From positions 30 to 64,029 of the forward strand of contig LCLX01000001.1 in assembly GCA_001002285.1 (NCBI GenBank): a DNA stretch of 64,000 nucleotides, written 5' to 3'. Both the position numbers and the translations under genes were made by a program. Position 1 is the first letter of the stretch. Each line of letters opens with the position of its first letter. Below the pieces are notes generated by a model. That model was given only the letters and a program-made list of their open reading frames with translations, was not told where the DNA came from and made no database searches. Of the stretch, positions 27,304-59,684 are shown piece after piece. This DNA comes from Microgenomates group bacterium GW2011_GWC1_46_15. GTDB lineage: Bacteria; Patescibacteriota; Microgenomatia; UBA1400; UBA12028.

Positions 27304-28052
27304 ACAACCAAGGCATGTATCAAAGGAATGTCATCAAAGAACGTTTGCAGGATGAAATTCTACGTTTTATCTACAACAACGATGTGTATAGCGAATTAAT
27401 TTTTACGGGGGGGACGTGTCTACGTAAAGTATATGGTCTTAATCGCTTGTCCGAAGATCTGGATTTTGATTTTTCTCCCGATGTCTCATTTGACACTAAG
27501 ATATTTGCCAAAGACGTAAGGACATATCTATCGGCGGATACCAGAATATCCGGCAATAATAATACAGTGTTTGTCAAATTCCCCGACAACATTTTTGTAC
27601 GATGTGACTTTTCCCCGATTATCTTAGGGGAATATCAAATACAAAAGAGCTTGATTATGGCTGACAATTGTCAATTTTTTGTTAATGCATATGATTTACC
27701 CACTCTTTATGCCAACAAAATAGCGGCTTTTTTAAGTAGAAACTTTTTTAAAGGAAAGTTTCAAAAAATTCCTTTCAAAGGCCGCGACATTTATGATTTG
27801 TATTGGCTCCTTCAGCTTTCGGCAAAAACAGGATACACCCTCAAACCGAACATCCCACGATTAATGGCCCTTTTGGGAAAAGATTCTTTGCTGGAAATAA
27901 AGAATTTTGTCAAAGACAAGATATGTGCAGTAGATCCGCAGTTTGTTTACAATGACCTGTCCCCGCTTATTGAATCTAAAGAGTTTTTGGATCAGTTTTT
28001 ACAAGATTTTGGGAAAACAATTGTCAATCAACTAGACTATGTTTTAACATAA
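27300..28052 (+). CDS. AbiEii/AbiGii nucleotidyltransferase toxin (DUF1814)
   Basis: LIFTGGTCLRKVYGLNRLSEDLDFDF matches GGTAL...R.SEDIDF signature of AbiEii. Confidence 0.75.
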   Translation: MNNQGMYQRNVIKERLQDEILRFIYNNDVYSELIFTGGTCLRKVYGLNRLSEDLDFDFSPDVSFDTKIFAKDVRTYLSADTRISGNNNTVFVKFPDNIFVRCDFSPIILGEYQIQKSLIMADNCQFFVNAYDLPTLYANKIAAFLSRNFFKGKFQKIPFKGRDIYDLYWLLQLSAKTGYTLKPNIPRLMALLGKDSLLEIKNFVKDKICAVDPQFVYNDLSPLIESKEFLDQFLQDFGKTIVNQLDYVLT

Positions 28053-28100
28053 AAGTAATACATATTGACAAAGTATTACTTTATATAGTAGTATTACCAC

Positions 28101-28331
28101 ATGCACACAGCAACAATAACACAAAAAGGGCAAATAACGATTCCCTTGGTCTTGAGGGAAGCCTTTGGATTAAGAGCGTACGGTAAAGCCAGGCTGGAAC
28201 AAGGAGATGGTTTCATCAAGGTATACGCGCAGGAGGACATTTTGGATTTAGTTGATACATTTGTTCCCAAAGTGAAAAAACCACTCATGAAAACCCGCGA
28301 GGCGTTTGAAAAGAAATATACGAGGTTTTAA
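28101..28331 (+). CDS. AbrB/SpoVT-type antitoxin (VapB-like)
   Basis: 76 aa; ITQKGQITIPLVLREAFGL swapped-hairpin motif; overlaps PIN gene start (ATGA). Confidence 0.65.
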   Translation: MHTATITQKGQITIPLVLREAFGLRAYGKARLEQGDGFIKVYAQEDILDLVDTFVPKVKKPLMKTREAFEKKYTRF

Positions 28332-28750
28332 TGATCTATTTTATAGATACAAACATTTTTTTGAGAGTTCTCATACGGGAAAACGAAAGCGCGTTTCAGC
28401 AGAGTAAAGCCTTTTTAGAGATGGTAAAACGCAATGTATATGACGCGGTAACAAGCACGATGGTGATTTCCGAAATAGTGTGGACTCTGGGCTCCTATTA
28501 CAAATTTCCAAAGAAAAAAGTACTACGGACAATACAAGGAATACTTCATCTCAGCGGGCTAAAAATCGTGGACGAATACGATATAAACAAATCTCTTGCA
28601 CTCTATGAATCCCACACATGTAAATACATAGACGCCATGATCGCAGGAATGCCGGGGGTACAGTCGGGCGCCTGGAACATCGTTTCCTATGATAAGGAGT
28701 TTGACAAATTGGGTGTCAAAAGAGTGGTGCCCGCAAAATTGTTGAAATAG
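28331..28750 (+). CDS. PIN-domain ribonuclease toxin (VapC-like)
   Basis: 139 aa; N-terminal FIDTNIF acidic motif, PIN-like spacing of D/E residues. Confidence 0.75.
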   Translation: MIYFIDTNIFLRVLIRENESAFQQSKAFLEMVKRNVYDAVTSTMVISEIVWTLGSYYKFPKKKVLRTIQGILHLSGLKIVDEYDINKSLALYESHTCKYIDAMIAGMPGVQSGAWNIVSYDKEFDKLGVKRVVPAKLLK

Positions 28751-28756
28751 TATTGA

Positions 28757-30169
28757 TTGTTATTCCCCTCCTTTTTCGTTAGTATGGAAGCTACTATGAG
28801 TGATGGAAACTTTGAGGGCGGAGCTCCGTCCACATCAGCACCAATAGCTCCGGTAGTAGATACGCCGGCGGTGCAGCCACCTCCATCCAATGAGGTCTCT
28901 GTAGAACAAGAGGCAACCAAGCGGTGGACTCCACCAAATCTTGATGACATTCCAGAGATGAAAAACGCAAAAAAACTTGGAGACAAAGAAACAAGCACAG
29001 ACTATGCGGCGTTCAAAAAAAGAGATAAGGATGGGAGCCTCATTCACGTTGATTTATCTGGAATGACCGACGAACAGAAAGAAAAAATCGATGGAATAGA
29101 CACATACTACGAGTTTGGGGGACAAACCGCGTATCATGATTTTGCAACATGGGCGGCCTCCGAAAAAGTTGGATTGTATGAGGAAAGGAAAAGCGAAGGC
29201 GGCCAAACAATAGGATTTCTTCCAAAAGAAGGAGTAAGTGTTAAAGACGCGTTTGATAGATTTCTCATTGAATCAGATAAAGGAAAAGCTATCGTCGCTT
29301 CAAAAACGACAGAAGTAGAAAAACAACGCGTGCGCCAAGAAGCAGATGGAGAATTTCTTGAGGGGATTGAAAAAGCGGTCGAAGACAGGAATTTGGGGGA
29401 GTTTACGCGACTGTATAGAGAAAGAATACAAAACGTCCTTAGAGATGGGGGGTTGAGCGATCAAGAAGTTGAAGAAATTTTTTCTTCGCAGAACGCATTT
29501 GTCCAAACGCTGAGAGAAATTGCAAGTAAAGGTGATCAAGATACAGAGGAAAAACCAACTGATGATGGAGTAAAAAAAGAACCCAAAACCCCTCTTGAAA
29601 AACTACTAGCGGGGGGAGATGAAGGAAGGCTAAAGAAACTACGAAAAAAACTTGGAGAACTTGATTTTTCTGCAGCGACAAACTTTGGAGAATCAATAGC
29701 CGCCGCAATTGAAAATGAAATGGACCTAGGAATACTTATTGATTATTTCTGCACAGGAAGGTATTACGACAAAATTGCGAAGAGCTTGGGATATAAATCA
29801 AAAGAAGAACTTGGGACAAAAGGAATTGGTCCCTCGGAAATTGAAGACTATACAAAAAGAGATCCCAAAAAAGAACTTCTCCTTTTAGCCAAGGGATTGG
29901 AAGAGGCGAGAATCATATCGGAAGAAGAATATAGAACCTATCTTGAGAGCGATTCCGCAGAAATATTAAAAAGTGAAGAATTTAGAAAAAAATTATCCAA
30001 TATTTCGAAAGAAAATAAACATAAATTTGATGAAGGGATTGTGAAAGAAATGAATAGGCTTGGACATGAAATCTCAAGAGAAGGGTTTGCATATTTAATG
30101 ATGATTCCTGAAAATGTAAAAAATCTTGGAGGAAATCAAACAAAAAACGAAGAACATGAGCAAGAGTAA
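28757..30169 (+). CDS. hypothetical acidic protein (ORFan), AT-rich island
   Basis: 470 aa, E/K-rich, no signal peptide or known motif; distinctly lower GC than flanks. Confidence 0.4.
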   Translation: MLFPSFFVSMEATMSDGNFEGGAPSTSAPIAPVVDTPAVQPPPSNEVSVEQEATKRWTPPNLDDIPEMKNAKKLGDKETSTDYAAFKKRDKDGSLIHVDLSGMTDEQKEKIDGIDTYYEFGGQTAYHDFATWAASEKVGLYEERKSEGGQTIGFLPKEGVSVKDAFDRFLIESDKGKAIVASKTTEVEKQRVRQEADGEFLEGIEKAVEDRNLGEFTRLYRERIQNVLRDGGLSDQEVEEIFSSQNAFVQTLREIASKGDQDTEEKPTDDGVKKEPKTPLEKLLAGGDEGRLKKLRKKLGELDFSAATNFGESIAAAIENEMDLGILIDYFCTGRYYDKIAKSLGYKSKEELGTKGIGPSEIEDYTKRDPKKELLLLAKGLEEARIISEEEYRTYLESDSAEILKSEEFRKKLSNISKENKHKFDEGIVKEMNRLGHEISREGFAYLMMIPENVKNLGGNQTKNEEHEQE

Positions 30170-30191
30170 TATTGCATGGTAAAATAACGGT

Positions 30192-32738
30192 ATGAATCCA
30201 GGATCGGGCTTATCAGGTTTTGAGAGAGGGAGATATTTTGATGCTCCAAAAGATGCTGGTGGCAACGTTATTCAACCCACCGCGTTAAACGAAATTAAAC
30301 TAGATGGCCAGCATCCCTACGTTGCCGTAGATCTTTGGGAACAGTATTCTCTTGATCGGCTTCGAGAAAAAGAATCTTTCATTAGAGAGGCATTAATTTT
30401 ATTAAATGCGGCGAAATCTCATCCAAAAATAACACCAGAAGATTTGGCGGCAATAGAACAGCTATCGAAACGAATTACAGACATTATTGCGAGACTTCCG
30501 GAAAAAGAAAAAGGAACAGACACAATAAAAAAATATTTACTTCGAAGAAAATCAATAGACCAAGTAACCTACGAGAGACTTACAACAACAGAGGCTGGTG
30601 CACGAGCAATTGCGAGAATGCTTATTGACGAAATGCATGTGCAAATAGGGATTATCCAAGACTCAGACAAAATTTATATTAACTCGGATATTGCATCTTG
30701 GAAATTTGAAATACAATCAGGACTAGAAACAGATCTCAAGTCCTTAGGAGAGTCTCTTCAGTCTTTAAGTCCAAGCCACGAAAAAATAGGAGAGCAGTTT
30801 CTCACAGATCTTTTTGCCATTTCGAAGTTAACAAAACTATGTAATGGATTAGAGAGTACACAAAAGAATGCTAAAGGAACGGCGGAGTATCTTGATAGTA
30901 TTAAAGTTCATCTCACAGACGGACAGAAAAAAAGAATAATTGCCATAGCTGGAAAGGAATATTGCGAGAAAGATGGAAGGTATTTAGCGCAGGATGTTCA
31001 TGATGCCTTAGTAATGTATGAGGCTTTATGTGCTCCAGAAATAATGACTATTGAAACGGAAGATGGAACAATTATTCATGGATATCCTGTTAAAACTAAA
31101 TATAATGCATTTCCCCAAAGTATCGCTTCAAATATAGAAATAAGATACGCAATTAGAAGAGCAATAGGTGCGATTCGTGGAGAAAATCCCACAGAACTTG
31201 GGCAATTGGGACGCGACTTGACTGTAGCTCTTGCAGAAAAAGATCCAAAAGAAAAAAGAAGAAAGATAAAAAAACTTTTAGAAGAGAATATTTCTTTTTA
31301 TAAGGAAAAGGCAAAAACAGATGAAAAAGCAAAAATGGACGATGCGGGAACAACAAAACATTCTTGGTTTGCGGAACTAATGGCGATTAATTATCTTGAA
31401 GGAGAAGTATATTCTGCGCATTATGATGCTGGACAAATAAAAAAGGACTCAAGCGGACAACCTATTCTTGGAAGCAGTGGCTATCCAATCATTGATCGCT
31501 TCGGTGGATGCGCCGCAACGTATAAGTTTGCCGTTGTTACTAATGCGGCGGCCGGCATGGCGAAATATAGTATTCCCGGAGAAGCGGAGCGAGGAGACCC
31601 AGGACCACCAATCTTAAGAAATATTTTAGTTGCTCCACTACTTCCATTAGATGAATACCTTTTTATTGAGGAAGGGAAGCGTGGGACAGCGAGCAGATTA
31701 ATGGGAATGACTTTACGTGAAGCAATTTTTAATACAACCTCTGCAGAAGAATTAGAACAGGTTTGGAATAGTTCCGCAGAGAATCTTATTAACGCAGATG
31801 AACAAGTTCAGGGGGCCATACATGAGGGGTGGGCATTTTGGGAGATGATGGTGAAGGGTATGGGAATTAAATTTTCTAAGATTGCCCACGTTGCTGAATG
31901 GTCAGAGGGACTTGACATAGAAATAGATCCATCCATAGAAACCAAATTAAAGGGGGTGTCGAGCGGAATAGAATACTGGCTAATAAGGGATAATATTAGA
32001 AATAAAAATTCTATTCAAAAACTTTTTGTGAAAGAATTTGGATCAGGAACCGATTGGAGAAAAGAATACATAAGATACAAAAAGTTCGAGGCAGTTGTAG
32101 TTGGGATAAAAAGGAGCGGGGGAGATGTTGATTTAGCGGTTCAGCAATTTCAAAGAAATGAAGGATTAACACAAAATATTGTGGACACATACAAAAAAAT
32201 ATACAACGAATTGCGCAAAATTGCCTCACAGGACTTTGATTTGGCGGAGGGTTGGGATAAGGGATCTCCTGGCGAAAATGATGAATATTTTATGAGATTT
32301 TCTGAGCGCGTGTTCACAAGAATTTTTGGTATTGATATAAAACAGACCAAGGAAGGAAAGTATGGAGAATTTGTTAAAGAAATTTTCAAAAATGACGTAA
32401 CTGATTGGATAAGGACAATGAAAAAATTTGTTATAGGGCTTCTTGTTATAGGACAAATACAACTCAATAAAGAGGCAGCAAACATTCAAAAAGATGATGT
32501 GCTCGCTATAAAAGCAATGTTAAATTATGATTTTTGGCACCATGAGCAAGAACGGCTTTCCGTGAAAATAGTGAGAGCGATGCGGGGAATTAGTGGTAAA
32601 ACAATTGAATTTACCGGAGTTGGTCTGTTTGAGCAAGATGAAGTTAATGCAATTATGAAAGATGCCGGAGTTCCGCGTGGAGTCATTGTTGACGCAGAGC
32701 ACGTGTGGAAAAGAGTACAGCAAATCAAACACGGTTAA
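30192..32738 (+). CDS. hypothetical large protein (ORFan), AT-rich island
   Basis: 848 aa, no recognisable catalytic motif; 23-nt spacing from upstream ORFan (operonic). Confidence 0.4.
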   Translation: MNPGSGLSGFERGRYFDAPKDAGGNVIQPTALNEIKLDGQHPYVAVDLWEQYSLDRLREKESFIREALILLNAAKSHPKITPEDLAAIEQLSKRITDIIARLPEKEKGTDTIKKYLLRRKSIDQVTYERLTTTEAGARAIARMLIDEMHVQIGIIQDSDKIYINSDIASWKFEIQSGLETDLKSLGESLQSLSPSHEKIGEQFLTDLFAISKLTKLCNGLESTQKNAKGTAEYLDSIKVHLTDGQKKRIIAIAGKEYCEKDGRYLAQDVHDALVMYEALCAPEIMTIETEDGTIIHGYPVKTKYNAFPQSIASNIEIRYAIRRAIGAIRGENPTELGQLGRDLTVALAEKDPKEKRRKIKKLLEENISFYKEKAKTDEKAKMDDAGTTKHSWFAELMAINYLEGEVYSAHYDAGQIKKDSSGQPILGSSGYPIIDRFGGCAATYKFAVVTNAAAGMAKYSIPGEAERGDPGPPILRNILVAPLLPLDEYLFIEEGKRGTASRLMGMTLREAIFNTTSAEELEQVWNSSAENLINADEQVQGAIHEGWAFWEMMVKGMGIKFSKIAHVAEWSEGLDIEIDPSIETKLKGVSSGIEYWLIRDNIRNKNSIQKLFVKEFGSGTDWRKEYIRYKKFEAVVVGIKRSGGDVDLAVQQFQRNEGLTQNIVDTYKKIYNELRKIASQDFDLAEGWDKGSPGENDEYFMRFSERVFTRIFGIDIKQTKEGKYGEFVKEIFKNDVTDWIRTMKKFVIGLLVIGQIQLNKEAANIQKDDVLAIKAMLNYDFWHHEQERLSVKIVRAMRGISGKTIEFTGVGLFEQDEVNAIMKDAGVPRGVIVDAEHVWKRVQQIKHG

Positions 32739-32749
32739 TTACTTCTGTC

Positions 32750-34531
32750 TTAAACTGGAAATCCCTCATCACCTTTTACCGATTCGTTCCTACTAGGCTG
32801 GAGATTTGAGATAGTTTCTTTACGCTTCTTTGTTTCAGGTGTCTCTGGCACTTTTTCTGGCGTGAGAACCTGACCAATTTGCTCCGCTATTTTAATATTT
32901 GTAATCTGCTGGTTAGCGAACTTCGCAACTTTATCAACTTGTGGTGCCACGTATTTTATTGTAGCAGGGGCAACAGCCCCAACGCCAGTTCCTATAAGTC
33001 CTCCAGCGAGCATTTTGCCAACACCCTGTCCACGTTGCGAATATGCACCAACAGCTGCCCCCCCAATAGCACCAAGAGAGGAAGTTGCTCCAAGAGAAAG
33101 CGCTTCTGGGAGGATTTTTCCCATTCCTGGTAATGTGGGACCAATTCCAGGGACCAGTTGTCCACCCTTCCATCCTTTACCCAGATTTTCTCCAATCTTC
33201 GGCAACCACTCATCCATCAATCCCTTCGCGCCAAGCCACTTTTTGCTCATCTCAACAGCCTCGGGGATAAGCATGAGAATGCCGAGGGCAATCAGACCAG
33301 ACGCAGCGCCGGAAAATCCATCACCCACTGTAATTTGTGGAGCCTGGAACCCACCGGTATCACCCGCGCGGTATCCAATACTTCCTTTTCCGCTTCCGCC
33401 AAGCGCGAGTGCAAGGAAAATCATCACGATCACAACGGGGAACGGCAATAATGTCGCAGCAAGGTTTTTTATCCATTGCACAAAATCTCCGCCGTCTTTG
33501 AGCGCACCAAGCAGCAACTGGAACGGCGCAAAAATCACCGAAATAATGAATGTTACATAACTTTTCAATAATTCAAAAAAGGTTTTGATGACTGCAAAAA
33601 ACATGGCAACTGCGATAATGACATACCCAACGACACCGACTGATTTTCCAACGATGTTTGATGCAAAATCTCCAGTATTTGCGAAAAGGTTTTCCGCAAT
33701 ATCTCCAATTGCTTTTGCCGCACCACCAACAACACTCCCCTTTACTCCGCTGTCACCGATACCAAAAATAAGACCGAGACCATTTGTTACAATATCTCTT
33801 GATAGTGCGATGTCAATCAATGTAAGATTATCTCCAAACTTCGATGTATCAATCAAATTTGCAAACACCCCCGTGATGAAGTAAATCACAAGATACATGA
33901 TGTCGATCATGAAGCCGGCGATGGCATACGAAAACGTAATCAGTAGCAGCGTAATCACGAGGTTGGGGAGCGCGTTACTAATGGTAATCACGGTTTGGCC
34001 GTGCAAATTCTTGCGGAACATAATCATGAACCCAATCGCGATAAACACGAGGACAAACACAACGTACGAAAGATCGCGGAACGCTTTCCACACAGGCAAG
34101 ATGGGGTTCAAGCTCTTGAATCCGATGCCCTGCGCGTACGCCTGTGAAACAAGCGGAGAGTGTTGAAGAAGATCAGCAAGCCACAACTCGCCACTCGCAG
34201 GCGGGTTTTTAATCATCATCGCGATAGCATTTCCCATCTCAGGGACAACGCCCTTGACAACGTACTGGCCTTTTTCATCTTGCACGCCCAGCAACATTGC
34301 CCCAATGCCGCCAACTTGTGAGCCGGTGGTGTAGAGGGTGGCCGACTCAAGAGGATACGTTCCGGTTCTTGCGCTGTTGATGATGGTTTGGTCAAACGTC
34401 TGTTTCGAGGGGACAGCTTCGGCCTGCGCGTACGCAATGGGGGTGGCAAAAAACACAACAGCAAAAACGCCCAAAAACACCGCAAATATTGCGCAAAAAA
34501 ACCGGCGGCCAAACTTCCTCATATGTTTCAC
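32750..34531 (-). CDS. polytopic membrane protein, VirB6/TrbL-like (topology- and context-based)
   Basis: 593 aa; signal peptide, periplasmic domain, about 7 TM helices, Gly-rich C-terminal region. Confidence 0.4.
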   Translation of the reverse strand: MKHMRKFGRRFFCAIFAVFLGVFAVVFFATPIAYAQAEAVPSKQTFDQTIINSARTGTYPLESATLYTTGSQVGGIGAMLLGVQDEKGQYVVKGVVPEMGNAIAMMIKNPPASGELWLADLLQHSPLVSQAYAQGIGFKSLNPILPVWKAFRDLSYVVFVLVFIAIGFMIMFRKNLHGQTVITISNALPNLVITLLLITFSYAIAGFMIDIMYLVIYFITGVFANLIDTSKFGDNLTLIDIALSRDIVTNGLGLIFGIGDSGVKGSVVGGAAKAIGDIAENLFANTGDFASNIVGKSVGVVGYVIIAVAMFFAVIKTFFELLKSYVTFIISVIFAPFQLLLGALKDGGDFVQWIKNLAATLLPFPVVIVMIFLALALGGSGKGSIGYRAGDTGGFQAPQITVGDGFSGAASGLIALGILMLIPEAVEMSKKWLGAKGLMDEWLPKIGENLGKGWKGGQLVPGIGPTLPGMGKILPEALSLGATSSLGAIGGAAVGAYSQRGQGVGKMLAGGLIGTGVGAVAPATIKYVAPQVDKVAKFANQQITNIKIAEQIGQVLTPEKVPETPETKKRKETISNLQPSRNESVKGDEGFPV

Positions 34532-41924: not shown

Positions 41925-42674
41925 TTATTTCTTTACTGCCACTGGAGCAACTCCATAGTATGCGGCTCTCAGTGTTGCCTTTGCTTGCAGGAGAGGGTTG
42001 GTTTGAACGACTGCCGCTCCGCGCGCGGTTTGCTGATCTTGTTGATTAATAATGAGCGTATCTACGGTTAAGTATCGGTCAGCGGAAAGAAGTGCTTGAA
42101 AAAAGTCATGAATGTCTAAGTAGGAACCTTTAACCGAAATAGTGAGAAGGAATGCGGTAACGGCATTTTGTTGGGGCACCGCGGGGGTTGCTGACGAAGT
42201 TTTTGCTGCTGGTTTTTGCCCAGGTTGTGCCGATTGTTCTGGGGTTTGACCGTCAGGAGTTGTTTCGCGCGGAACGCTACTGGTTTGAACGCTGGAAAGC
42301 ACAACGTTGTGTTCTGATGCAATTTTTTCAATCCGGCGAAGTAACCCATCAATATCCGGTGTATTTGGAAGAGCAAGATCAAGCAGCGCTAAATCTTTTT
42401 GAAGCGCGAGTACCTCATTGCTTGTGGTGGAAAGCGCGGCGATTTTCTTTGTGAGCGCCTGGTCGGTCGTCTTTCTATCAGCAATATCTTTGAGCAATTG
42501 AGACATTGTGGTCAGCGTTGGCCCGATGGCGGCGAGCGCTAAAAACATAACCGCCACGATGGTAATAATGAGTTCAGTGGAAACTTTCGCGATGGGTTTT
42601 TGGTAGAACTTTTGCAGTTCCTGCATCGAGCGGTTACGGATCATGCTGAAGGTGACGCGGATTGGTGTGCTCAT
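41925..42674 (-). CDS. type IV pilus assembly protein PilO-like
   Basis: 249 aa; N-terminal TM, coiled coil, C-terminal LTISVKGSYLDIHDFFQALLSADRYLTVDTLII PilO-like. Confidence 0.5.
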   Translation of the reverse strand: MSTPIRVTFSMIRNRSMQELQKFYQKPIAKVSTELIITIVAVMFLALAAIGPTLTTMSQLLKDIADRKTTDQALTKKIAALSTTSNEVLALQKDLALLDLALPNTPDIDGLLRRIEKIASEHNVVLSSVQTSSVPRETTPDGQTPEQSAQPGQKPAAKTSSATPAVPQQNAVTAFLLTISVKGSYLDIHDFFQALLSADRYLTVDTLIINQQDQQTARGAAVVQTNPLLQAKATLRAAYYGVAPVAVKK

Positions 42675-42691
42675 AATTTTTACATAGCGCT

Positions 42692-43240
42692 TTATTTTGC
42701 CAGCGCGATCCTCATCGTAAACTCAAATCCCGCTAGCCCCTGGTCCGAGCTTTTTACTTGATCAACAACGAGACCTTTTACAAGTGATTTTCTCTGTAAA
42801 TTTACGATAAAGATCGCCAAATCTTTAGATGACGGCGCTGTTCCCACAACCTGCACTTGTTGGTCATGGAGTTGTGTAACAGAAAGAACAACATTTGGAG
42901 GAATAAGTGTGGAAACAACGTCAAGAATGTCCAGCGGTGTGAGTAGCGCTTTTTGCTGGGTCAAAAACTCTGTTTTCTTTTGAATTGTTCGTATATCGTT
43001 TTCGAGTGATCCATACGAGCTGATGAGGTTAGATTTTTGAGTAATGCCAGAATTGAGATCGGTGAGATCGCGGTCCAGTTTAAACCGCGTCGCAAAGCTG
43101 ATAATCACGACGAGTTCAGTAAAAACCACGAGGTATCGCCCAATGTTTGATGCCCACAGCAACATCCGTCCAAGCGCCGTTTCGTAAAACGGGTCCTGCG
43201 GCATAAGATTAATAGAAAGTGGGCGAGGCTTTGTTGTCAT
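42692..43240 (-). CDS. type IV pilus assembly protein PilN-like (ORF track start 43561 probably over-extended)
   Basis: Start at MTTKPRPLSINLMPQD; TM, coiled coil, PilN-like C-terminus. Confidence 0.5.
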   Translation of the reverse strand: MTTKPRPLSINLMPQDPFYETALGRMLLWASNIGRYLVVFTELVVIISFATRFKLDRDLTDLNSGITQKSNLISSYGSLENDIRTIQKKTEFLTQQKALLTPLDILDVVSTLIPPNVVLSVTQLHDQQVQVVGTAPSSKDLAIFIVNLQRKSLVKGLVVDQVKSSDQGLAGFEFTMRIALAK

Positions 43241-43296
43241 GGTGTTGGTGTACGATGGGAGTACAATACAGGCTGTCCATTTCGTACGGAAAAAGT

Positions 43297-43839
43297 ATGA
43301 CAGAAAACACACTGATCTTCCAGCTGAAAAAGGGGAGCGCGCAGGCGGTGGAACGGTGGTACGCGGAGTACTCCAAACGACTATTCCGTTTTGTTGTGTT
43401 AAAAGTGTCAAATACACACGATGCCGAGGAGATTTGCCATGATACGTTTTTATCCTGCCTAGAAAGTCTGCCGGTGTTCCGCGAAAACTCCTCATTGTGG
43501 ACGTGGATGTGTTCGGTCGCGCGGCACGAAATTGCTGATTACTTCCGCAAGCGCTACGCAAAAAAATTGTTACGCATGGTGCCGTTTAGCGATGCGGTGT
43601 TGCCCGAAAGTTATCTTGATATGCATGAAACATCAGATGCAGTGCGCGCCGTTTTACATGCTTTGCCGATCCGTGACCGCGAACTTCTCATCTTGAAGTA
43701 TATTGATCGGTTGAGTGTGCAGAACATTGCCAGCAAGCTAAATATGAAGTTTAAGGCTGTTGAGTCGGCGTTGTTCCGCGCGCGCAAGGCGTTTCAGGCG
43801 GTATATGCGCAGCAAGAAGAAAACGTTGAGGAAAAGTAA
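43297..43839 (+). CDS. ECF-type RNA polymerase sigma-70 family factor (ORF track start 43219)
   Basis: Region 2 FRFVVLKVSNTHDAEEICHDTFL; region 4 HTH LSVQNIASKLNMKFKAVESALFRARKAF. Confidence 0.8.
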   Translation: MTENTLIFQLKKGSAQAVERWYAEYSKRLFRFVVLKVSNTHDAEEICHDTFLSCLESLPVFRENSSLWTWMCSVARHEIADYFRKRYAKKLLRMVPFSDAVLPESYLDMHETSDAVRAVLHALPIRDRELLILKYIDRLSVQNIASKLNMKFKAVESALFRARKAFQAVYAQQEENVEEK

Positions 43840-43841
43840 AC

Positions 43842-44081
43842 ATGAAATCACACGATAAAACATTTATTCAGGCGATGCAAAATATCGCAAAAGAACAGAA
43901 GGTTTTGATGGAGACTTCACCGTTTCCGCAGTGGTTTGGGCCGGTTAATGCGCTGGTATTAAACCATGCGCTGGTTACGATTGTGGCATTATCGCTTGGA
44001 GTAAGTATGGTTATTTTTGTTCTGTATTTCCGATTTTTCTTTGCATTGGCGGTAGGAATGGCAGGAGGTCTAGGACTATGA
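43842..44081 (+). CDS. small membrane protein (possible anti-sigma factor)
   Basis: 79 aa, one or two TM, immediately after ECF sigma. Confidence 0.3.
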   Translation: MKSHDKTFIQAMQNIAKEQKVLMETSPFPQWFGPVNALVLNHALVTIVALSLGVSMVIFVLYFRFFFALAVGMAGGLGL

Positions 44082-44395
44082 AAATCAAATTTGTTTCATG
44101 GTCCATGGGATACAGTGTTTTTCAGGTCGTGCAAGGATTGTTGATTCACCCATACCAAACGATGCGGCAAGTGGTCCGCGAGCGCGTTTTTATTTGGTTG
44201 AGTTTCTCGCCCGTTTTTTTGTGGATTTTTGGTCTGGCGATTTGGAGGATTCTTGAGGTGTTACTCCTTCGCGTCATTCCGTATCCCAATGGCTGGATGT
44301 TTTTGGCGCTGTGGTTCACCACGGCGATTGGGATGTACCAGGTATTGCTGGCCTATTTGTTGGTGCGCTTTCTCTCGGTGGCCAGGCCTGAATGA
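44078..44395 (+). CDS. small membrane protein
   Basis: 105 aa, three predicted TM helices, overlaps upstream gene by 4 nt. Confidence 0.3.
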   Translation: MKIKFVSWSMGYSVFQVVQGLLIHPYQTMRQVVRERVFIWLSFSPVFLWIFGLAIWRILEVLLLRVIPYPNGWMFLALWFTTAIGMYQVLLAYLLVRFLSVARPE

Positions 44396-44424
44396 TTTTA
44401 TCCCCCTTTTGCGACTAACGGTGC

Positions 44425-44754
44425 ATGCCTCCGCAAACAGAACATCTTACACCAGAAGAAGTGGATGTATTGATTGAGGACTCGATTACGCACTATCCTA
44501 CCCCTGGTACAGGAGCTGGAGGTGGAACGAGTTCAAGTATTCCAATGTGGCATCGGACAAATTGGGAGCGATTACATCTCCCAGGCATGAAGTTCTGTCC
44601 AACGTGTCAGGAAAAAGGAGAAAATCCTTTTCGATTAGGAACACGGCGATGTTGTCAGATTTGCGGGACAGTACTAGAATCTCAGCCACCACAGGAAAGC
44701 CAAGCAGTAATGTTGAGCGCGCCCATAATGCGGGCGCTTGTATCGAAAGAATAA
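44425..44754 (+). CDS. hypothetical zinc-ribbon protein
   Basis: CPTCQ...CCQICG. Confidence 0.3.
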   Translation: MPPQTEHLTPEEVDVLIEDSITHYPTPGTGAGGGTSSSIPMWHRTNWERLHLPGMKFCPTCQEKGENPFRLGTRRCCQICGTVLESQPPQESQAVMLSAPIMRALVSKE

Positions 44755-44757
44755 TAT

Positions 44758-45300
44758 ATGGCGACACACCTCATTCTTGTTGATAAAAACGACAATCAGG
44801 TAGGGGCGACTGATGTTTTGGATGCCCACCGTGGTGATGCAAAGCGTCATCGAGCCATTTCCGTGTTTTTATTCAACGAAAAAGGCGAACTTCTCATGCA
44901 ACAGCGAAGCGCAAAAAAAATTGTCGGCGCGCTCCAATGGGCAAATGCGTGTTGTGGAAATGTTCACGATGGAGAAACACGCGAAGCATGTGCACACTGC
45001 CGATTAAAAGAAGAGTTGGGAATCACCGATGTTGTTTTGAAGCCATTGTGCACATTTGAGTATCATGTTCAGTGCAATCCAAAGTTCAGCGAGTGGGAAA
45101 TAGACCAAGTGTTTGTCGGGGAGTATGATGGTGCAGTTCAACCGAATCCAGATGAAGTAAAAGCATACGCGTTTATGAAGATCGCGGATATTGAACGCCA
45201 AACAAAGTCGAAAAAAGAAATGTACACGCCGTGGTTCCACATCTTTCTGAAAAACAAAAACGTACACGATGAAATACAAAGGAGGGCGTATGCCAAATAG
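44758..45300 (+). CDS. idi: isopentenyl-diphosphate delta-isomerase, type 1 (Nudix fold)
   Basis: LILVDKNDNQVGATDVLDAHRGDAKRHRAISVFLFNEKGELLMQQRSAKKI...CCGNVHDGETREACAHCRLKEELGI. Confidence 0.8.
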   Translation: MATHLILVDKNDNQVGATDVLDAHRGDAKRHRAISVFLFNEKGELLMQQRSAKKIVGALQWANACCGNVHDGETREACAHCRLKEELGITDVVLKPLCTFEYHVQCNPKFSEWEIDQVFVGEYDGAVQPNPDEVKAYAFMKIADIERQTKSKKEMYTPWFHIFLKNKNVHDEIQRRAYAK

Positions 45301-45559
45301 TGAAGGTGTAAAAATATATGTGTCGATGCGCGGGTTATTGGATAATGATGTACAGCGCGTGTTAACATTTCTCGCGCCGGATGAGTCGCAAAGAATCATG
45401 CACCTCGTTGGCGGCGAAGATGGATATACATATGAGCTTGTCAGCGGAGAAGGGGAGACAGAAACAGATTTACAACGGGCGGTTGAAGATTGTTTGAATC
45501 GTTTTTCCGGAGTTTCTTATACATTTATCGCAAAACTCGTACAAGAATTTGCGTTTTAA
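45269..45559 (+). CDS. hypothetical protein
   Basis: 96 aa ORF overlapping idi 3' end; no motif. Confidence 0.25.
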   Translation: MKYKGGRMPNSEGVKIYVSMRGLLDNDVQRVLTFLAPDESQRIMHLVGGEDGYTYELVSGEGETETDLQRAVEDCLNRFSGVSYTFIAKLVQEFAF

Positions 45560-46379
45560 GCGTCATACTCTATGTATGAAAAAGAAAAACGTTGTTCTCA
45601 TCAAACTCGGCGGCTCTATTATCACCAACAAAGATATTCCCATGTCGTTACGGCAGGACGCATTAGATAGATTAGTGCATGAAATTGTCCGCGCACGCCA
45701 AGAGCAAAAAGACACATTGTTCGTCGTTGGCCACGGCCAGGGGAGTTTTGCCCACGTGCCGGCGGTGAAGTATCAAACAATGCAGGGATTTGTGAACGAT
45801 GAAAGCCCAATGGGTATGGCGATTGTTCAGGACTCTGCGGCTCAACTCAACCGCATCGTTGTCCGCGCGTTTCTTCAGCAAGGAGTCCCCGCGGTGTCGT
45901 TATACCCAAGCAATAGCCTGGTTACGAACGCGCGCAAACCAGTAGCATACTTTACCGATGTATTCGAGCAGTATCTCCGCCTAGGAATGTTTCCTGTAAC
46001 GGGCGGTGACGTGATTGCAGATGAAAAACAAGGGTGCACGATTTGGTCCACAGAGGAAGTGTTGTCATTTTTTGCTCAGCAGTTTGTTAAAAAAGGATGG
46101 CACATTACAGGTATTTTTCATATTGTTGAAGTTGATGGCGTGTATGATCTCAACAAGCGCCTGGTTTCAAGGATCACGTACAAAAATTGGCCAAAAATAA
46201 AACAGGCGATTACCTGTACAAAGGGATTTGATGTGACCGGCGGAATGGGATTAAAGGTTGAGGAGTCATTGGCACTCGCAAAACTCGGGATTCCATCAAA
46301 TATTCTTTCGGGACTTGTAAAAGACAATGTGTACAACGCTTTGGTTGGAAAACAGTGGAAAGGGACAGAAATCCTCTAG
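45549..46379 (+). CDS. isopentenyl phosphate kinase (amino-acid-kinase fold; archaeal-type mevalonate pathway enzyme)
   Basis: LIKLGGSIITNK, VVGHGQGSFAHVPAVKY, PAVSLYPS, DVTGGMGLKV, C-terminal GTEI; aligns motif-by-motif with archaeal IPK. Confidence 0.75.
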   Translation: MRFKRHTLCMKKKNVVLIKLGGSIITNKDIPMSLRQDALDRLVHEIVRARQEQKDTLFVVGHGQGSFAHVPAVKYQTMQGFVNDESPMGMAIVQDSAAQLNRIVVRAFLQQGVPAVSLYPSNSLVTNARKPVAYFTDVFEQYLRLGMFPVTGGDVIADEKQGCTIWSTEEVLSFFAQQFVKKGWHITGIFHIVEVDGVYDLNKRLVSRITYKNWPKIKQAITCTKGFDVTGGMGLKVEESLALAKLGIPSNILSGLVKDNVYNALVGKQWKGTEIL

Positions 46380-46401
46380 AGATTCTGGTACAATACTGCC
46401 T

Positions 46402-47106
46402 ATGAACGCCTCGAAAAACACCATAAAACACATCGCCATCATCATGGATGGCAACCGCAGATGGGCAAAAAAACAGGGGTTGGGTGCAATCAATGGTCAC
46501 CAGCATGTTGTAGATAATATTATCGAGCCACTCGTTGATCGGTGCATCGAACTCGGGATCAAATACCTCACGTTTTGGGCGTTCAGCACAGAAAACTGGG
46601 AGCGCGACAAAATGGAGCTGGAAGGCATGATGCAGTTGTTTCGCCACGCATTTGAGCGGAAAGTTGAAGATCTGCATAAAAAAGGAGTACGGCTGCAGAT
46701 TTTAGGTGAAATTGATAAGTTTCCAAAAGACATTGCGGAGCAGGCGAGGCGGTGGGTAGAGATTTCTAAAAACAACACAAATATTACTGCGAGTTTTGCG
46801 CTCAACTATGGTGGCCGCGACGAAATCACGCGCGCGATCAAAAAGATGGTGCAGCTCAATCCAAGTTTAGTTGCTAATCAAGTGACCGAACAAAAAATTC
46901 AGTCATATCTTGATACCACTGATATGCCTGATCCCGACTTAATTATCCGCCCCGGTGGCCAACTCCGGCTTTCCGGATTTATGCCATGGCAGGGAGTGTA
47001 TAGCGAGTTGTACTTCACTGATGTGTTGATGCCTGAGTTTACCGTTGCGGAGTTAGACAAAGCATTAGCTGATTTTACCGCGCGCCAAAGACGGTTTGGA
47101 AAATAA
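46402..47106 (+). CDS. uppS: undecaprenyl-diphosphate synthase (ORF track start 46327)
   Basis: HIAIIMDGNRRWA, YLTFWAFSTENWERD, IRPGGQLRLSGFMPWQ. Confidence 0.9.
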   Translation: MNASKNTIKHIAIIMDGNRRWAKKQGLGAINGHQHVVDNIIEPLVDRCIELGIKYLTFWAFSTENWERDKMELEGMMQLFRHAFERKVEDLHKKGVRLQILGEIDKFPKDIAEQARRWVEISKNNTNITASFALNYGGRDEITRAIKKMVQLNPSLVANQVTEQKIQSYLDTTDMPDPDLIIRPGGQLRLSGFMPWQGVYSELYFTDVLMPEFTVAELDKALADFTARQRRFGK

Positions 47107-47139
47107 CACCAGGCGTTTTGAGTTTCTCCAAGCAGATAT

Positions 47140-47502
47140 TTACCCAAGAATGGTAATGCCGAACACAATTTGAAGAAGTTGTGCAATCCAGTACGATGCG
47201 AAAAGAAGAACAAATCCGATGACCGCTGCCGTCATGCGCTGCTTTCCCGCTTCTTGTGATTTTGGTTCCGCTGCACCAGTGAGCATTTCGAACCCACCCC
47301 AAATGAACATGAGAAAAAGGATAATCCCGCCAAAAGTGAGAAGGTACGGAAGGAGCGCAGAAAGAATGCCGCCGGGGGTATCAAGACCTTCCTTGAGGCC
47401 AATCGCGCCTTCGATGGTAGACATAATTTCGGAAGTTGCTCCGCCAGAACTTCTCCCAAAAGGATTTGCCCCGCCATTTTGTGCAAGAAGCATACCAATC
47501 AT
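47140..47502 (-). CDS. T4SS pilin-like small membrane protein (paralog 8, remote from main array)
   Basis: LMFIWGGFEMLTGAAEPKSQEAGKQRMTAAVIGFVLLFASYWIAQLLQIVFGITILG, near-identical C-terminus to paralog 7. Confidence 0.5.
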   Translation of the reverse strand: MIGMLLAQNGGANPFGRSSGGATSEIMSTIEGAIGLKEGLDTPGGILSALLPYLLTFGGIILFLMFIWGGFEMLTGAAEPKSQEAGKQRMTAAVIGFVLLFASYWIAQLLQIVFGITILG

Positions 47503-47512
47503 ATGACGACCC

Positions 47513-48268
47513 TCAAAATCCTGGGATCTGCAACACCGTGATCCCTATTGTTTTTAATAGTACCATCGAAAAGATGATGAAGAGTAACCCGCTTACCGCC
47601 GCGGTAATTTTATTCTTCGCTTCTTCCGTCGCTTTTGGGTCACCTTTGCTTGTTGTAAGTTGAAAAGCGGCCGCCAACGTCTTGAGGAGTACGATGCCCC
47701 CGCCCATGCTAAGTGCGAGGCGGACAAAGGCGGTGAGGATTCCATTTGAGTCTGTTGGAATGCAACCGATCGCGGTCCAAACACCATCTTTATTTGAACA
47801 ATTTTCACACTGGATTCTTGCAGTATCGTCGGAAACCCGGGCACAGAGTTTAAAAGAGGGGGTATTCCATGTCAATGGATCTTCGGTTTTGTATAGACAC
47901 ACAAAAGATCCATCTGCCGTTTCTTTTGGGATTGTATTTGCGTCACGACAGTGCTGGCTTCGGAGTCTTGTGACTTCATACCTAAAACACGCTGGTTGTC
48001 CGTGCTCACCGCAATCCGGATTTGGAGAGCATGTACATACCCCGATTGCGCCAACTCCGAGACATATTTTTGTGTCTGGTATTTCTGTTGGATCTGTACA
48101 TATGGCAACACACCCAAATGGTCCGCAGTTCGGGAGACCTGATAATCCACAAATATTAACGCCGAGACATGAAGACGCTTCTACTGGGGAGAGGTGACCT
48201 GAACGGAGGAAAAGTAGAGATGTTGCGAACATGGAAACGACAAACAAAATAAATGTATTCACTTTCAT
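47513..48268 (-). CDS. secreted Cys-rich protein fused to a pilin-like C-terminal module (possible minor/tip pilin or adhesin)
   Basis: 251 aa; signal peptide; about 20 Cys in N-terminal 170 aa; C-terminal LLKTLAAAFQLTTSKGDPKATEEAKNKITAAVSGLLFIIFSMVLL matches pilin paralog motif. Confidence 0.5.
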   Translation of the reverse strand: MKVNTFILFVVSMFATSLLFLRSGHLSPVEASSCLGVNICGLSGLPNCGPFGCVAICTDPTEIPDTKICLGVGAIGVCTCSPNPDCGEHGQPACFRYEVTRLRSQHCRDANTIPKETADGSFVCLYKTEDPLTWNTPSFKLCARVSDDTARIQCENCSNKDGVWTAIGCIPTDSNGILTAFVRLALSMGGGIVLLKTLAAAFQLTTSKGDPKATEEAKNKITAAVSGLLFIIFSMVLLKTIGITVLQIPGF

Positions 48269-56288: not shown

Positions 56289-56374
56289 GGAGAGGTGCAG
56301 GGAATGGTTATCCGGACAGTCTTGAAAACTGTTGCCGCAAGGCATTGTGGGTTCGAGTCCCACCCTCTCCGCCA
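56289..56374 (+). tRNA. tRNA-Ser (anticodon TGA), type II with long variable arm
   Basis: GGAGAGG...anticodon loop CTTGAAA...GGTTCGAGTCCCACCCTCTCCGCCA. Confidence 0.85.
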
Positions 56375-56391
56375 ACTTATTGGAATAACCT

Positions 56392-56476
56392 GGAGGGGTC
56401 GCCTAGTGGTTTATGGCAATAGTTTACTAAACTATCAGCGCAAGCTACCGTGGGTTCGAATCCCACCCCCTCCGCA
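56392..56476 (+). tRNA. type II tRNA, Ser-like, apparent anticodon ACT (loop TTACTAA); CCA not fully encoded
   Basis: GGAGGGG...GGTTCGAATCCCACCCCCTCCG; anticodon stem ATAGT/ACTAT. Confidence 0.7.
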
Positions 56477-56767: not shown

Positions 56768-57214
56768 CTAAACCACCACACGCTCCAGCGCTTTCCGCAT
56801 ATCGGGGTTTTTAAAAATCTCAGTGGATTGAAGAATTTCTTCTTTTGTGAGCCAAAGCACTTCAAAAATATCTTCATATTGAGCAGGGTTTTTTGTCACG
56901 TCAACCGTTGGTTCTCCAATCAATGTACATTGATATCCCGAACACACAATACGAATATTTTGCTCTGATGTATGAAGGACAAAATCCCAACCACCTACAG
57001 GACGTTGAATTTCAATGGTAAGTCCGACTTCTTCCATGACCTCGCGCAAGAGCGCGTCGTGTGATGACTCTCCAGGCTCAACGCCTCCACCTGGAATAGT
57101 GTGGAGGATTCTTTCGAGACCGCGATCAACAACTTTTTGTTTTACGATCAGAATTTTTCCGGCATAAACAATAAACGCCTTCACCGAAGGGCGGATTCTG
57201 ACGATAGGTTTCAT
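56768..57214 (-). CDS. NUDIX hydrolase (ORF track start 57265)
   Basis: Nudix box GGGVEPGESSHDALLREVMEEVGL. Confidence 0.75.
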   Translation of the reverse strand: MKPIVRIRPSVKAFIVYAGKILIVKQKVVDRGLERILHTIPGGGVEPGESSHDALLREVMEEVGLTIEIQRPVGGWDFVLHTSEQNIRIVCSGYQCTLIGEPTVDVTKNPAQYEDIFEVLWLTKEEILQSTEIFKNPDMRKALERVVV

Positions 57215-57230
57215 ATCAATATGTGTTCCC

Positions 57231-59684
57231 CTAGAAAAACACGCTCCGAATCTGCGGTACAGCAAGAATAATCCCCTGAAGCACAGCTGATATCACGACG
57301 GTTATAATCAAAAACCGGTTTGAGTACGCCGGCGTGTGCTTTCCACGGACAAGAAACACGACGAGAAGTTCCAGCGCAACGAGCGTAGTAAAGACCGCAC
57401 CGCGACTAAAAGACAATCCGCGGCTTAGTGCAAATGCAAAAACACTTAGCGCAATCACGGCTTGTCCAATCCCAACCCCGCCTATCCACACATAGTTTTC
57501 TCTGGTTAATAACGCCGTCCGGTTTACTTGGTATTTTTTCAACATCGTTCTTCCATCGCTGGGATCAATGGCAAGGGCGAGCGCGGGGAGTCCGTCTGTT
57601 ACAATGTTGATCCACAGTATCGCCGGTGGCAGCAAGGGCAGCGGTAGGCCAAAAAGAAGCGCACCAAACATCACGCACACCTCGCCAAGGTTAGACGACA
57701 ACAAGTACACAATAGTGTGGGTTAAGTTGGTAAAAACAGTTCGCCCTTCTTGGATAGCGGCCACAATAGTCGCAAAGTTGTCGTCGGTAATCACGATATC
57801 CGAAGCCTCTTTTGCAACGTCCGTTCCGGTCATGCCCATCGCAACTCCAACCTCCGCCTTTTTGAGCGCGGGCGCATCATTTACGCCGTCTCCTGTTACG
57901 GCAACAACGCGGCCCATTTCTTGAAATGCGCGGACAATCCGCAGTTTGTCTGTTGGCGTCACGCGGGCAAAAATACGCACGCGGCTTAAATGCTGACGAA
58001 GAATACTATCTTCATACTGCGCAAGCTGTTGGCCGGTTAAAATTTCATCATCATGGTCAATGAGGCCAATTGACTCGGCAATGGAACGTGCGGTTTCCGG
58101 CGAATCACCCGTCAACATGACAGTCATAATGCCGGCGCGCTTACAGATACGGAGTGCCTCAGTAACCTCTTCCCTTGGGGGGTCGGAAATGGCAACAAGT
58201 CCGGCAAACGTATATCCGGAAAATGTTTCTTTTTGTACTCCTTTTGTATAGTGTGCAGAAAGCCGTTTGTGTGCAAACGCCAACACGCGGAACCCCCGCC
58301 GACCAAAATCCTCCGCCTTCTTTCGATATATTTCTTTCTCTTTTTCATTCAGCGAACTGCAAAACTGCAGAATAGATTCTGCTGCGCCTTTCGCATACGC
58401 ATGCGTTGCAGTATGCACAGCCATGGCTTTTCTATTGGAATCAAACGGATACTCCTCGATGGTGGGGAACTGTTCGCGCAGAGAAACCGTACTCAACCCG
58501 GACTTTTCGACAAGAATAAGAAGCGATCCCTCTGTTGTGTCGCCAAGAACGCGGAACTCTTTTCCACCATCCTCAACAAGCGCCAACGAACTCGTGTTAC
58601 ACAGCGCGCTAATGTGAAGCAAGATAGAAAGATCGTCGTGTGTGGCAAGATCTGCAATACGTTTTCCCGTTTTTTCTTCAATAATTTCTCCACTTTTTGT
58701 GTACCCGATTCCGGTTACGGTATACGCGCGCGTGGGTGTTACAAGATGTTTCACAACCATTTCATTTTTTGTTAATGTTCCGGTTTTGTCGGTGCAAATC
58801 ACATCAACTGACCCCAAAGCCTCAACCGCGGGAAGCCGCTTTACAATCGCCTTTTTTCCCGCAAGTCGCTTGACGCCAAACGCCAAAGCAATGGTAAGCA
58901 CGGCAATCAAGCCTTCCGGGATTGCGGCGACCGCGAGCGCAACTGCAGACAAAAACATATCGTACGGCCGTTCTCCCCGCATTAAACCGATACCCCAGAT
59001 GAGGAGAATGAGGAAGCCAATGCCGATGCCGAGCACTCGACCCAAAGAAGAAAGCTTTTTTTCCAGCGGGGTATGCTCTTCATGTATTTCGGAAAGGCGC
59101 TGGGCGATTTGGCCAAACGCCGTATGAGCCCCCGTCTTTGTTACAAGAGCGACGGCTTTTCCCGAGAGCACAGTCGTTGCCATAAATGCCGCATCGTGTA
59201 CACCCTTTGGCACAGGAACACTTTCTCCAGTGAGCGATGCCTCATTGACCGAAAGAGAAGAAGTGGACAAGATCTCGCAGTCGGCAGGGACACTGTCTCC
59301 CTCGGTAAGAATAACAACGTCCCCCGGAAGGAGCGACTTTGCTTTTATGAGTTTTTCTTTTCCATCGCGGATCACACGTGCATACGGAATGAGAAGTTTT
59401 TTGAGCGCAGCAATTTCGTGTTTTGCGCGCATTTCCTGAAGAAAACTGATTGATGCGTTTAAAAGGACAATGAAAAAAATAAAGTACGCATCTAATGTTT
59501 CGTGAAGATAGTACGATACGCTGCCGGCAAAAAGAAGAATAAAAACAAACAAGGAGCGGAACTGTTTAAGGAAAATGAAAATAACGGGAAGTTCACGCGC
59601 CTTTGGAAGAGTGTTATATCCAAACTGGTCCCGTAGCCGAGAAATGTCCTCCGACCGCAGTCCTGTCCCTGTAGGCTGTATCAT
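57231..59684 (-). CDS. P-type cation-transporting ATPase (type II, Ca2+/Mg2+-like)
   Basis: DKTGTLT phosphorylation motif, TGDGVNDAPALKKA hinge, 8-10 TM. Confidence 0.9.
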   Translation of the reverse strand: MIQPTGTGLRSEDISRLRDQFGYNTLPKARELPVIFIFLKQFRSLFVFILLFAGSVSYYLHETLDAYFIFFIVLLNASISFLQEMRAKHEIAALKKLLIPYARVIRDGKEKLIKAKSLLPGDVVILTEGDSVPADCEILSTSSLSVNEASLTGESVPVPKGVHDAAFMATTVLSGKAVALVTKTGAHTAFGQIAQRLSEIHEEHTPLEKKLSSLGRVLGIGIGFLILLIWGIGLMRGERPYDMFLSAVALAVAAIPEGLIAVLTIALAFGVKRLAGKKAIVKRLPAVEALGSVDVICTDKTGTLTKNEMVVKHLVTPTRAYTVTGIGYTKSGEIIEEKTGKRIADLATHDDLSILLHISALCNTSSLALVEDGGKEFRVLGDTTEGSLLILVEKSGLSTVSLREQFPTIEEYPFDSNRKAMAVHTATHAYAKGAAESILQFCSSLNEKEKEIYRKKAEDFGRRGFRVLAFAHKRLSAHYTKGVQKETFSGYTFAGLVAISDPPREEVTEALRICKRAGIMTVMLTGDSPETARSIAESIGLIDHDDEILTGQQLAQYEDSILRQHLSRVRIFARVTPTDKLRIVRAFQEMGRVVAVTGDGVNDAPALKKAEVGVAMGMTGTDVAKEASDIVITDDNFATIVAAIQEGRTVFTNLTHTIVYLLSSNLGEVCVMFGALLFGLPLPLLPPAILWINIVTDGLPALALAIDPSDGRTMLKKYQVNRTALLTRENYVWIGGVGIGQAVIALSVFAFALSRGLSFSRGAVFTTLVALELLVVFLVRGKHTPAYSNRFLIITVVISAVLQGIILAVPQIRSVFF

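Follow-up and report, generated by a model that had tools for sequence, protein, structure and literature searches.

The alternative mevalonate (MVA) pathway of Chloroflexi and haloarchaea, which Dellas et al. 2013 and VanNice et al. 2014 are said to have described, reportedly leads from mevalonate kinase (MVK) via a phosphomevalonate decarboxylase to isopentenyl phosphate kinase (IPK). In the plant cytosol, IPK and a Nudix hydrolase reportedly form a cycle between isopentenyl phosphate (IP) and isopentenyl diphosphate (IPP), as Henry et al. 2015, 2018 are credited with showing. The present analysis concerns a cluster of genes for a type-1 isopentenyl-diphosphate delta-isomerase (idi; protein, IDI), an IPK (ipk) and a protein of the undecaprenyl-diphosphate synthase family (uppS), located on contig LCLX01000001.1 of Microgenomates group bacterium GW2011_GWC1_46_15; the whole stretch of 64,000 nucleotides (64 kb) that was analysed is referred to as the window. 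Undecaprenyl phosphate is essential for the building of peptidoglycan, and the C5 source of the ultra-small symbionts of the candidate phyla radiation (CPR) therefore bears on their dependence on a host. The cluster is read here as a trimmed version of one known from CPR Microgenomates, in which IPK and IDI would mainly capture or recycle C5 monophosphates rather than finish a locally encoded MVA pathway, an interpretation to which we give about an even chance. It represents a clean example of an IPK kept under selection after loss of MVK and the decarboxylase from the locus, and sharpens the question of what feeds IPK in CPR bacteria devoid of MVK and of a decarboxylase of the MVD family (MVD).

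The system is no new kind. Hoshino & Gaucher 2018 (Mol Biol Evol) found IPK to be carried by CPR bacteria, mainly Microgenomates, and to keep its synteny with IDI-I even where a species is short of most MVA genes, with the CPR MVA genes typically clustering with the gene for a cis-prenyltransferase (cis-IPPS, uppS); CPR IPKs, none of them characterised biochemically, have been used in arguments on the ancestry of the MVA pathway (PMC6107057). The idi-ipk-uppS pattern is accordingly one already published in 2018 and common within CPR Microgenomates. The window shares with that report the gene trio and the phylogenetic group, and it differs not in kind but in holding a minimal version, without MVK, decarboxylase or trans-prenyltransferase (trans-IPPS). 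An apparently clade-restricted open reading frame (ORF) of 89 aa in the window is absent from the main text of PMC6107057, and a literature search retrieved no paper linking Pacebacteria with mevalonate. A preliminary description of the locus, made from the sequence alone, had called the route rare in bacteria, which holds outside CPR and Chloroflexi but not within CPR Microgenomates, where it is common (495 IPK homologs at E<=1e-10, many of the close ones already named IPK by JGI or NCBI). Related in principle is the engineered isopentenol utilisation pathway, composed of a promiscuous alcohol kinase, IPK and IDI (kinase cascade: PMC9654404), in which IPK and IDI suffice to convert C5 monophosphates to IPP and dimethylallyl diphosphate (DMAPP) without the MVA or methylerythritol phosphate (MEP) pathway; in contrast to that design, neither an importer nor a first-step alcohol kinase was identified here, and a natural occurrence is hypothetical.

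The cluster has the order idi - ORF89 - ipk - uppS, with all genes on the + strand:

44758-45300, + strand: idi, type-1 isopentenyl-diphosphate delta-isomerase (Nudix fold), 180 aa, assigned by hidden Markov models (HMM) and PDB matches
45290-45559, + strand: ORF89, small acidic protein of unknown function, 89 aa, between idi and ipk
45576-46379, + strand: ipk, isopentenyl phosphate kinase (amino-acid-kinase fold), 267 aa, assigned by NF040647, PF00696 and PDB matches
46402-47106, + strand: uppS, cis-prenyltransferase (undecaprenyl-diphosphate synthase family), 234 aa from ATG, assigned by TIGR00055 and PF01255

The names type-1 idi, IPK and uppS, proposed in the preliminary description, are each confirmed by curated HMMs above cutoff. 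For the kinase, the archaeal IPK model NF040647 (IPPK_Arch) yields 188.9 bits against a cutoff of 120, PF00696 also matches, and the six top PDB matches are all IPK structures (E ~1e-28 to 1e-30). The fold described by PF00696 is common to several families, and weak matches to FosC (41.9 bits) and FomA (28.3 bits) would speak for another amino-acid-kinase member, i.e., a FomA/FosC-type fosfomycin kinase, a UMP kinase or an acetylglutamate kinase (NAGK). These two scores, however, lie far under the cutoffs of 350 and 550, while IPPK_Arch passes its own; FomA follows the IPK structures in PDB only at E=1e-5, and the UMP-kinase and NAGK models gave no match at E<=0.01. The isoprenoid gene neighbourhood likewise argues against such an identity, which we regard as extremely improbable.

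The motifs reported beforehand (LIKLGGSI, HGxGSFxH, DVTGGM and a C-terminal GTEI) are all present, the second one as HGQGSFAH. Residues were mapped with the M. jannaschii structure 3k4o on an alignment in which the window IPK was combined with its 120 best homologs and with nine more remote IPKs of CPR bacteria. Lys6, Lys15, His60, Lys221 and DVTGGM (M. jannaschii numbering) are conserved in the window IPK and the 120 closest homologs wherever aligned, Lys6 and Lys15 being missing from four N-terminally truncated homologs. His60, the residue which sets IPKs apart and holds the substrate phosphate (PMC9654404), is invariant across these 120 proteins and stands against any of the sister families. 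Substitutions fixed in the clade are Asp160->Glu, Gly159->Thr, Phe83->Met and Ile86->Val. Judged by this pattern, the gene is clearly under purifying selection, and by all sequence criteria the kinase is an IPK. It groups with archaeal IPK by HMM, PDB and His60 in the comparison with FomA, UMP kinase and NAGK that had been suggested as a check. An identity as FomA/FosC, UMP kinase or NAGK is effectively refuted by the HMM scores together with His60.

With respect to its length, the 276-aa frame given in the preliminary description exists (45549-46379, TTG start at 45549), but the ATG at 45576, yielding 267 aa, is the likely start. The 267-aa product is publicly annotated with this ATG and occurs as the exact protein on 20 public contigs. 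Identical IPKs are found in the 'Candidatus Pacebacteria bacterium' metagenome-assembled genomes (MAGs) GCA_003484165.1 and GCA_003525295.1 as well as in a 2015 Microgenomates MAG from Rifle groundwater (KKT97773.1).

The idi product scores 138.3 bits on NF002995 (cutoff 127) and 115.9 bits on TIGR02150 (cutoff 105.8), matches PF00293 (E=1e-19) and has exclusively type-1 IDIs as PDB matches. Alignment to the enzymes of E. coli, Salmonella and human shows that it retains the catalytic residues Cys67, Glu116 and Tyr104. The divalent-metal site of type-1 IDI, which we take to be formed by His25, His32, His69, Glu114 and Glu116 (E. coli numbering), is kept at four of its five positions (His25, His32, Glu114 and Glu116), the position of His69 being occupied by Asn ('CCGN' within the residues 'CCGNVH'). 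This exchange is shared by the window and three relatives (loci L004, L006 and L008; L numbers denote the loci compared), whereas IDIs of more distant CPR bacteria have the canonical C-x-H at this position; Asn could still ligate the metal. The uppS product reaches 230.5 bits on TIGR00055 (cutoff 109.55) and E=2e-74 on PF01255 and contains the motifs MDGNRRWA, with the catalytic Asp, and RPGGQLRLSGF (Arg-x-Gly-Gly...Arg-x-Ser, IPP-binding). Its longest ORF, starting at 46327, would overlap ipk. Since the protein stays below species-specific equivalog models (e.g., NF011405 with 265 bits against a cutoff of 304), C55 is a presumed chain length of its product.

The kinase had been described as sandwiched between isomerase and synthase. 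This is correct on the downstream side, where uppS follows ipk directly after a gap of 22 bp, so short that no decarboxylase remnant is left between the two genes; on the upstream side, ORF89 (45290-45559) intervenes between idi and ipk. ORF89 shares 11 nt with the end of idi and stops 16 nt short of the start of ipk; it is preceded by AGGAGG 3 nt 5' of its ATG and was called as a gene of 89 aa by gene callers on the four public contigs shown. Homologs in the same position exist in L041 (32% identity, E=2e-11) and L004 (48% over 46 aa). No Pfam or NCBIfam match was obtained, a phmmer search of 1.8 billion representative proteins returned only ORF89 itself and low-complexity matches, and BLASTP revealed no similarity to the C-terminal parts of longer proteins of the second Nudix type found in relatives (see below). 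ORF89 thus appears, by its sequence matches, to be restricted to a close clade. A single-sequence AlphaFold2 model displays a beta-alpha-beta-beta-alpha-beta arrangement (pLDDT 72.5), for which Foldseek found generic matches only; with moderate confidence, the protein is predicted to adopt a ferredoxin-like fold.

The proposed role of the cluster is as follows. IPK would use ATP to convert isopentenyl phosphate, and probably also dimethylallyl phosphate, to IPP and DMAPP, IDI-1 would balance IPP against DMAPP, and UppS would condense IPP onto an allylic primer to form the C55 lipid carrier used in the export of peptidoglycan and glycans. The C5 monophosphates could be host-derived or could arise by Nudix-type dephosphorylation of IPP and DMAPP. 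In relatives equipped with MVK and MVD, IPK plausibly closes an MVA route of the Chloroflexi/haloarchaeal type. The previously suggested feeding of lipid-carrier synthesis by IPK is plausible, because uppS lies only 22 bp after ipk and this adjacency is kept in relatives.

Genes that could supply isopentenyl phosphate were sought across the window, with Pfam scans covering every ORF of at least 80 aa. They detected no MVK, MVD/decarboxylase, HMGR, HMGS, AACT/thiolase or trans-prenyltransferase domain in the 64 kb and no gene of the MEP pathway (dxs, dxr, ispD-H). Likewise, tblastn of the window with CPR proteins of the MVK/MVD pathway, including HMGR, HMGS, AACT and DUF35 of L039, gave no match. 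The preliminary description had placed the kinase at the terminal step of an archaeal-type MVA pathway. The identity of the enzyme agrees with this, but MVK and the MVD-family decarboxylase are absent from the cluster and from the 64 kb, and because the steps producing IP are missing here, that placement is only partly supported.

To see the locus in context, the genes around IPK homologs were compared, together with those at 32 MVD loci found with the L004 decarboxylase as query. L006, L008, L041 and L042 share with the window the core order idi - ipk - uppS, in which a variable insert (ORF89 or Nudix) separates idi from ipk. These four loci have the order IDI - divergent second Nudix (194-298 aa) - IPK - UppS, lack MVK and MVD, and harbour an 89-aa ORF, following the Nudix gene, in L041 only. 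Directly 3' of IPK, uppS is found in the window and in the same four loci, whereas an MVD gene lies in between in L004. The latter locus, with an IPK 69% identical to that of the window, is arranged as MVK - IDI - divergent Nudix - small ORFs - IPK - MVD - UppS, its MVK scoring 193 bits on TIGR00549 and its MVD 270 bits on TIGR01240. The window cluster, IDI - ORF89 - IPK - UppS, is the most reduced form seen.

The Nudix-box protein encoded between IDI and IPK in the relatives is divergent and fast-evolving (158-298 aa) and is represented by two ORFs in L004. Its coordinates are L004 9167-9744, L041 5161-5745, L042 5352-6008, L006 9130-9966 and L008 9096-9992.

Several clusters are richer than that of the window and bear on the alternative that its IPK performs the terminal step of a complete alternative MVA pathway, with MVK, decarboxylase and upper pathway encoded elsewhere in the genome; we consider this rather unlikely, though still a serious contender. 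MVK and an MVD-family decarboxylase flank IPK in L004, L014-L018, L020, L022 and L037-L039 and, with L029 included in the series, stand beside it, which favours such a pathway. More distant CPR bacteria have the order MVK - MVD-family decarboxylase - IPK - IDI - (trans-IPPS) - UppS (e.g., L014, L018, L020, L022 and L038). A complete one-locus MVA cluster, with UppS nearby, is present in L039 (378-8808 of CAYOSW010000008.1). It comprises trans-IPPS, HMGR, HMGS, an archaeal-type AACT accompanied by its DUF35 protein, MVK, MVD, IPK and two IDI-like genes, and it provides the whole pathway without a second GHMP kinase, again in favour of IPK as a terminal step. The MAG carrying L039 is labelled 'uncultured Gammaproteobacteria', and several other 'Gammaproteobacteria' MAGs occur among the MVD loci; since their clusters are of CPR style, these labels look wrong.

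The clusters without IPK fit the same alternative. L019, L023, L036 and L043 each possess a second GHMP kinase of the MVK family, consistent with IPK and phosphomevalonate kinase (PMVK) being alternatives. Two of these four kinases were scored and lean towards phosphomevalonate kinase models, with 98-119 bits and thus under the cutoff. The second kinase was detected in none of 12 IPK-linked clusters and is present in the 4 IPK-less ones, which suggests, for this small sample, that the two enzymes are mutually exclusive alternatives in CPR clusters. In L023 (4661-5923) and L036 (~4574-5941), the second GHMP kinase and an IDI-like Nudix domain lacking the catalytic Cys form a single in-frame fusion. 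The IPK-less cluster of GCA_964460975.1 contains IDI, MVK, a second kinase and MVD; its UppS gene lies on the opposite strand. MVA genes have, moreover, been reported for most Microgenomates (PMC6107057).

The likeness to the alternative pathway of Chloroflexi and haloarchaea extends to the window IPK, which is of the archaeal family and has the same catalytic residues, and to the combination of MVK, MVD-family decarboxylase and IPK without a second GHMP kinase in L004, L039 and others; it ends with the missing MVK and decarboxylase of the window and with the CPR decarboxylases, which by score are not MvaD-like. The latter match the generic diphosphomevalonate decarboxylase model (TIGR01240) and reach only 177-184 bits on haloarchaeal MvaD, against a cutoff of 475. 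Their closest homologs outside CPR belong to Chloroflexi. In a neighbour-joining tree of MVD proteins, the decarboxylases accompanying IPK and those accompanying two kinases did not fall into distinct groups, and for this reason no claim on phosphomevalonate versus diphosphomevalonate specificity is made from sequence.

Against MVA genes elsewhere in the genome stand their absence within 64 kb and the observation that relatives with readable flanks keep MVA genes next to or near IPK when these are present. The distribution of the genes among public sequences points in the same direction: IPKs at least 60% identical to that of L004 form 53 clusters, as compared to 3 MVK and 2 MVD clusters at least 60% identical to the respective L004 proteins. 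Furthermore, none of the long contigs bearing trimmed-cluster or close IPKs (1.28 Mb, 1.04 Mb, 811 kb, 485 kb and 422 kb, the last with an IPK identical to that of the window) was among the best 120 MVK or MVD matches, so that near-complete trimmed-cluster relatives on contigs of 0.8-1.28 Mb also speak against this alternative; the check is valid because the L004 contig (994,748 bp) was recovered in both lists. Of these contigs, that of 811 kb is GROS21-1 scaffold_1 and that of 1.04 Mb is from JGI, while the IPK of the 1.28-Mb contig is also carried by ERZ964739 k127_73140 (745 kb). The 32 loci found with the L004 decarboxylase included none from DNDA/DQEY contigs, but did not include the genome of L004 itself either, rendering this absence uninformative. 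Among the MVK and MVD matches listed, no Pacebacteria-named or DCX25-tagged proteins appeared, a result left undecided by NCBI-sourced matches without names. On balance, MVK and MVD would seem to have been lost from the lineage of the window; both are gone from the locus and, in all probability, from the genome as well.

Several points weigh against the reading of the cluster as a device for capturing or recycling C5 monophosphates. MVK, a decarboxylase or an MEP pathway may be encoded outside the 64 kb. The best 120 matches reach down to ~51% identity for MVD and to ~37% for MVK, and MVK evolves faster than IPK (60% identity where IPK has 86%), and orthologs of MVK within the clade could therefore hide among the unnamed matches of 40-46%. 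No salvage transporter or first-step alcohol kinase was identified, and UppS needs an allylic primer, yet the window has no trans-prenyltransferase. Finally, with Asn in place of the metal ligand His69, isomerase activity of the IDI is not guaranteed.

A different role would be that of a homeostatic IP/IPP cycle of IPK and a Nudix hydrolase as in plants, with net IPP provided by another route, e.g., an MEP pathway encoded elsewhere. Such a cycle is reportedly established in plants, and the cluster resembles it in having IPK without a phosphomevalonate decarboxylase and in the Nudix genes adjacent to IPK in CPR relatives, the divergent second Nudix gene being located between idi and ipk in L004, L006, L008, L041 and L042. 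The setting differs in that the window belongs to a bacterium, that ipk and uppS are parts of one operon, and that the cluster of the window lacks the Nudix partner. A related Nudix gene is retained in the window at 56768-57265, in favour of a cycle. The absence of the in-cluster Nudix gene from the window argues against it, as does the second Nudix of the relatives having no assigned substrate; MEP genes are, in addition, sparse in CPR (PMC6107057) and lacking in the window. Altogether, we judge this explanation to be improbable.

The retained Nudix hydrolase gene (56768-57265, - strand), ~10 kb downstream of the cluster, encodes a protein with 30% identity (E=2e-9) to the Nudix located between idi and ipk in L042 and, by this similarity, may be a displaced cluster member.

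The capture or recycling of C5 monophosphates also has a more far-reaching form. The module idi - (ORF89/Nudix) - ipk - uppS might be the sole isoprenoid entry in a Pacebacteria-like clade without MVA and MEP pathways, whose episymbiotic members would import C5 prenyl monophosphates or alcohols from their hosts and activate them by IPK and IDI for synthesis of the lipid carrier of the cell wall. We advance this only tentatively and deem it somewhat unlikely; if true, the engineered isopentenol utilisation pathway would have a parallel in nature, and CPR bacteria would show a new form of metabolic dependency.

Upstream of idi, co-directional and tightly packed genes occupy 43219-44754 (+ strand):

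43219-43839, + strand: ECF-type (extracytoplasmic function) sigma factor with Sigma70_r2/r4_2 domains
43842-44081, + strand: 79-aa ORF
44078-44395, + strand: 105-aa membrane protein
44425-44754, + strand: 109-aa Cys-rich (zinc-ribbon-like) protein, ending 3 nt before idi

The sigma factor gene precedes the cluster in each of the five relatives that have readable flanks, counterparts of the 105-aa membrane protein with 37-65% identity exist in L004, L006 and L008, and the 109-aa Cys-rich protein matches a 104-aa protein of L004. These genes may form one operon with idi-ipk-uppS, and a functional tie to isoprenoid synthesis would be suggested by synteny only. A scan of 42600-47600 for sigma-70 promoters and terminators gave no signal above chance as estimated from shuffled sequence.

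The window differs from DNDA01000013.1, belonging to a Candidatus Pacebacteria MAG (CPR), by 6 bases over 20.8 kb (99.97% identity). Its gene content is typical of CPR/Patescibacteria, including type IV secretion system (T4SS)-type pilins, PilN/PilO, SpoIID, DUF5657 and dnaA/dnaN.

Further observations concern other parts of the window. Bacterial tRNA-Ser reading AGY codons normally carries the anticodon GCT. The tRNA-Ser gene at 56392-56475 (+ strand), adjoining a tRNA-Ser(TGA) gene at 56289-56374, has the unusual anticodon ACT (A at position 34) in a seven-base loop TTACTAA. A low-GC stretch at ~26000-32800 (GC 0.38-0.41 versus ~0.46 elsewhere) displays strong positive GC and AT skew. Genes for an AbiEii toxin and for a PIN-domain protein lie in this stretch together with two large ORFs (470 and 848 aa) without Pfam match, and it may represent a mobile or defence island. 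The genes dnaA and dnaN (13320-16357) likely mark the replication origin and adjoin a T4SS-like block (16360-24508), which encodes a TraG/VirB4-type ATPase, a PrgI-family protein and a 1035-aa M23 peptidase. An identical type of T4SS-like block is located beside the MVA cluster of L043.

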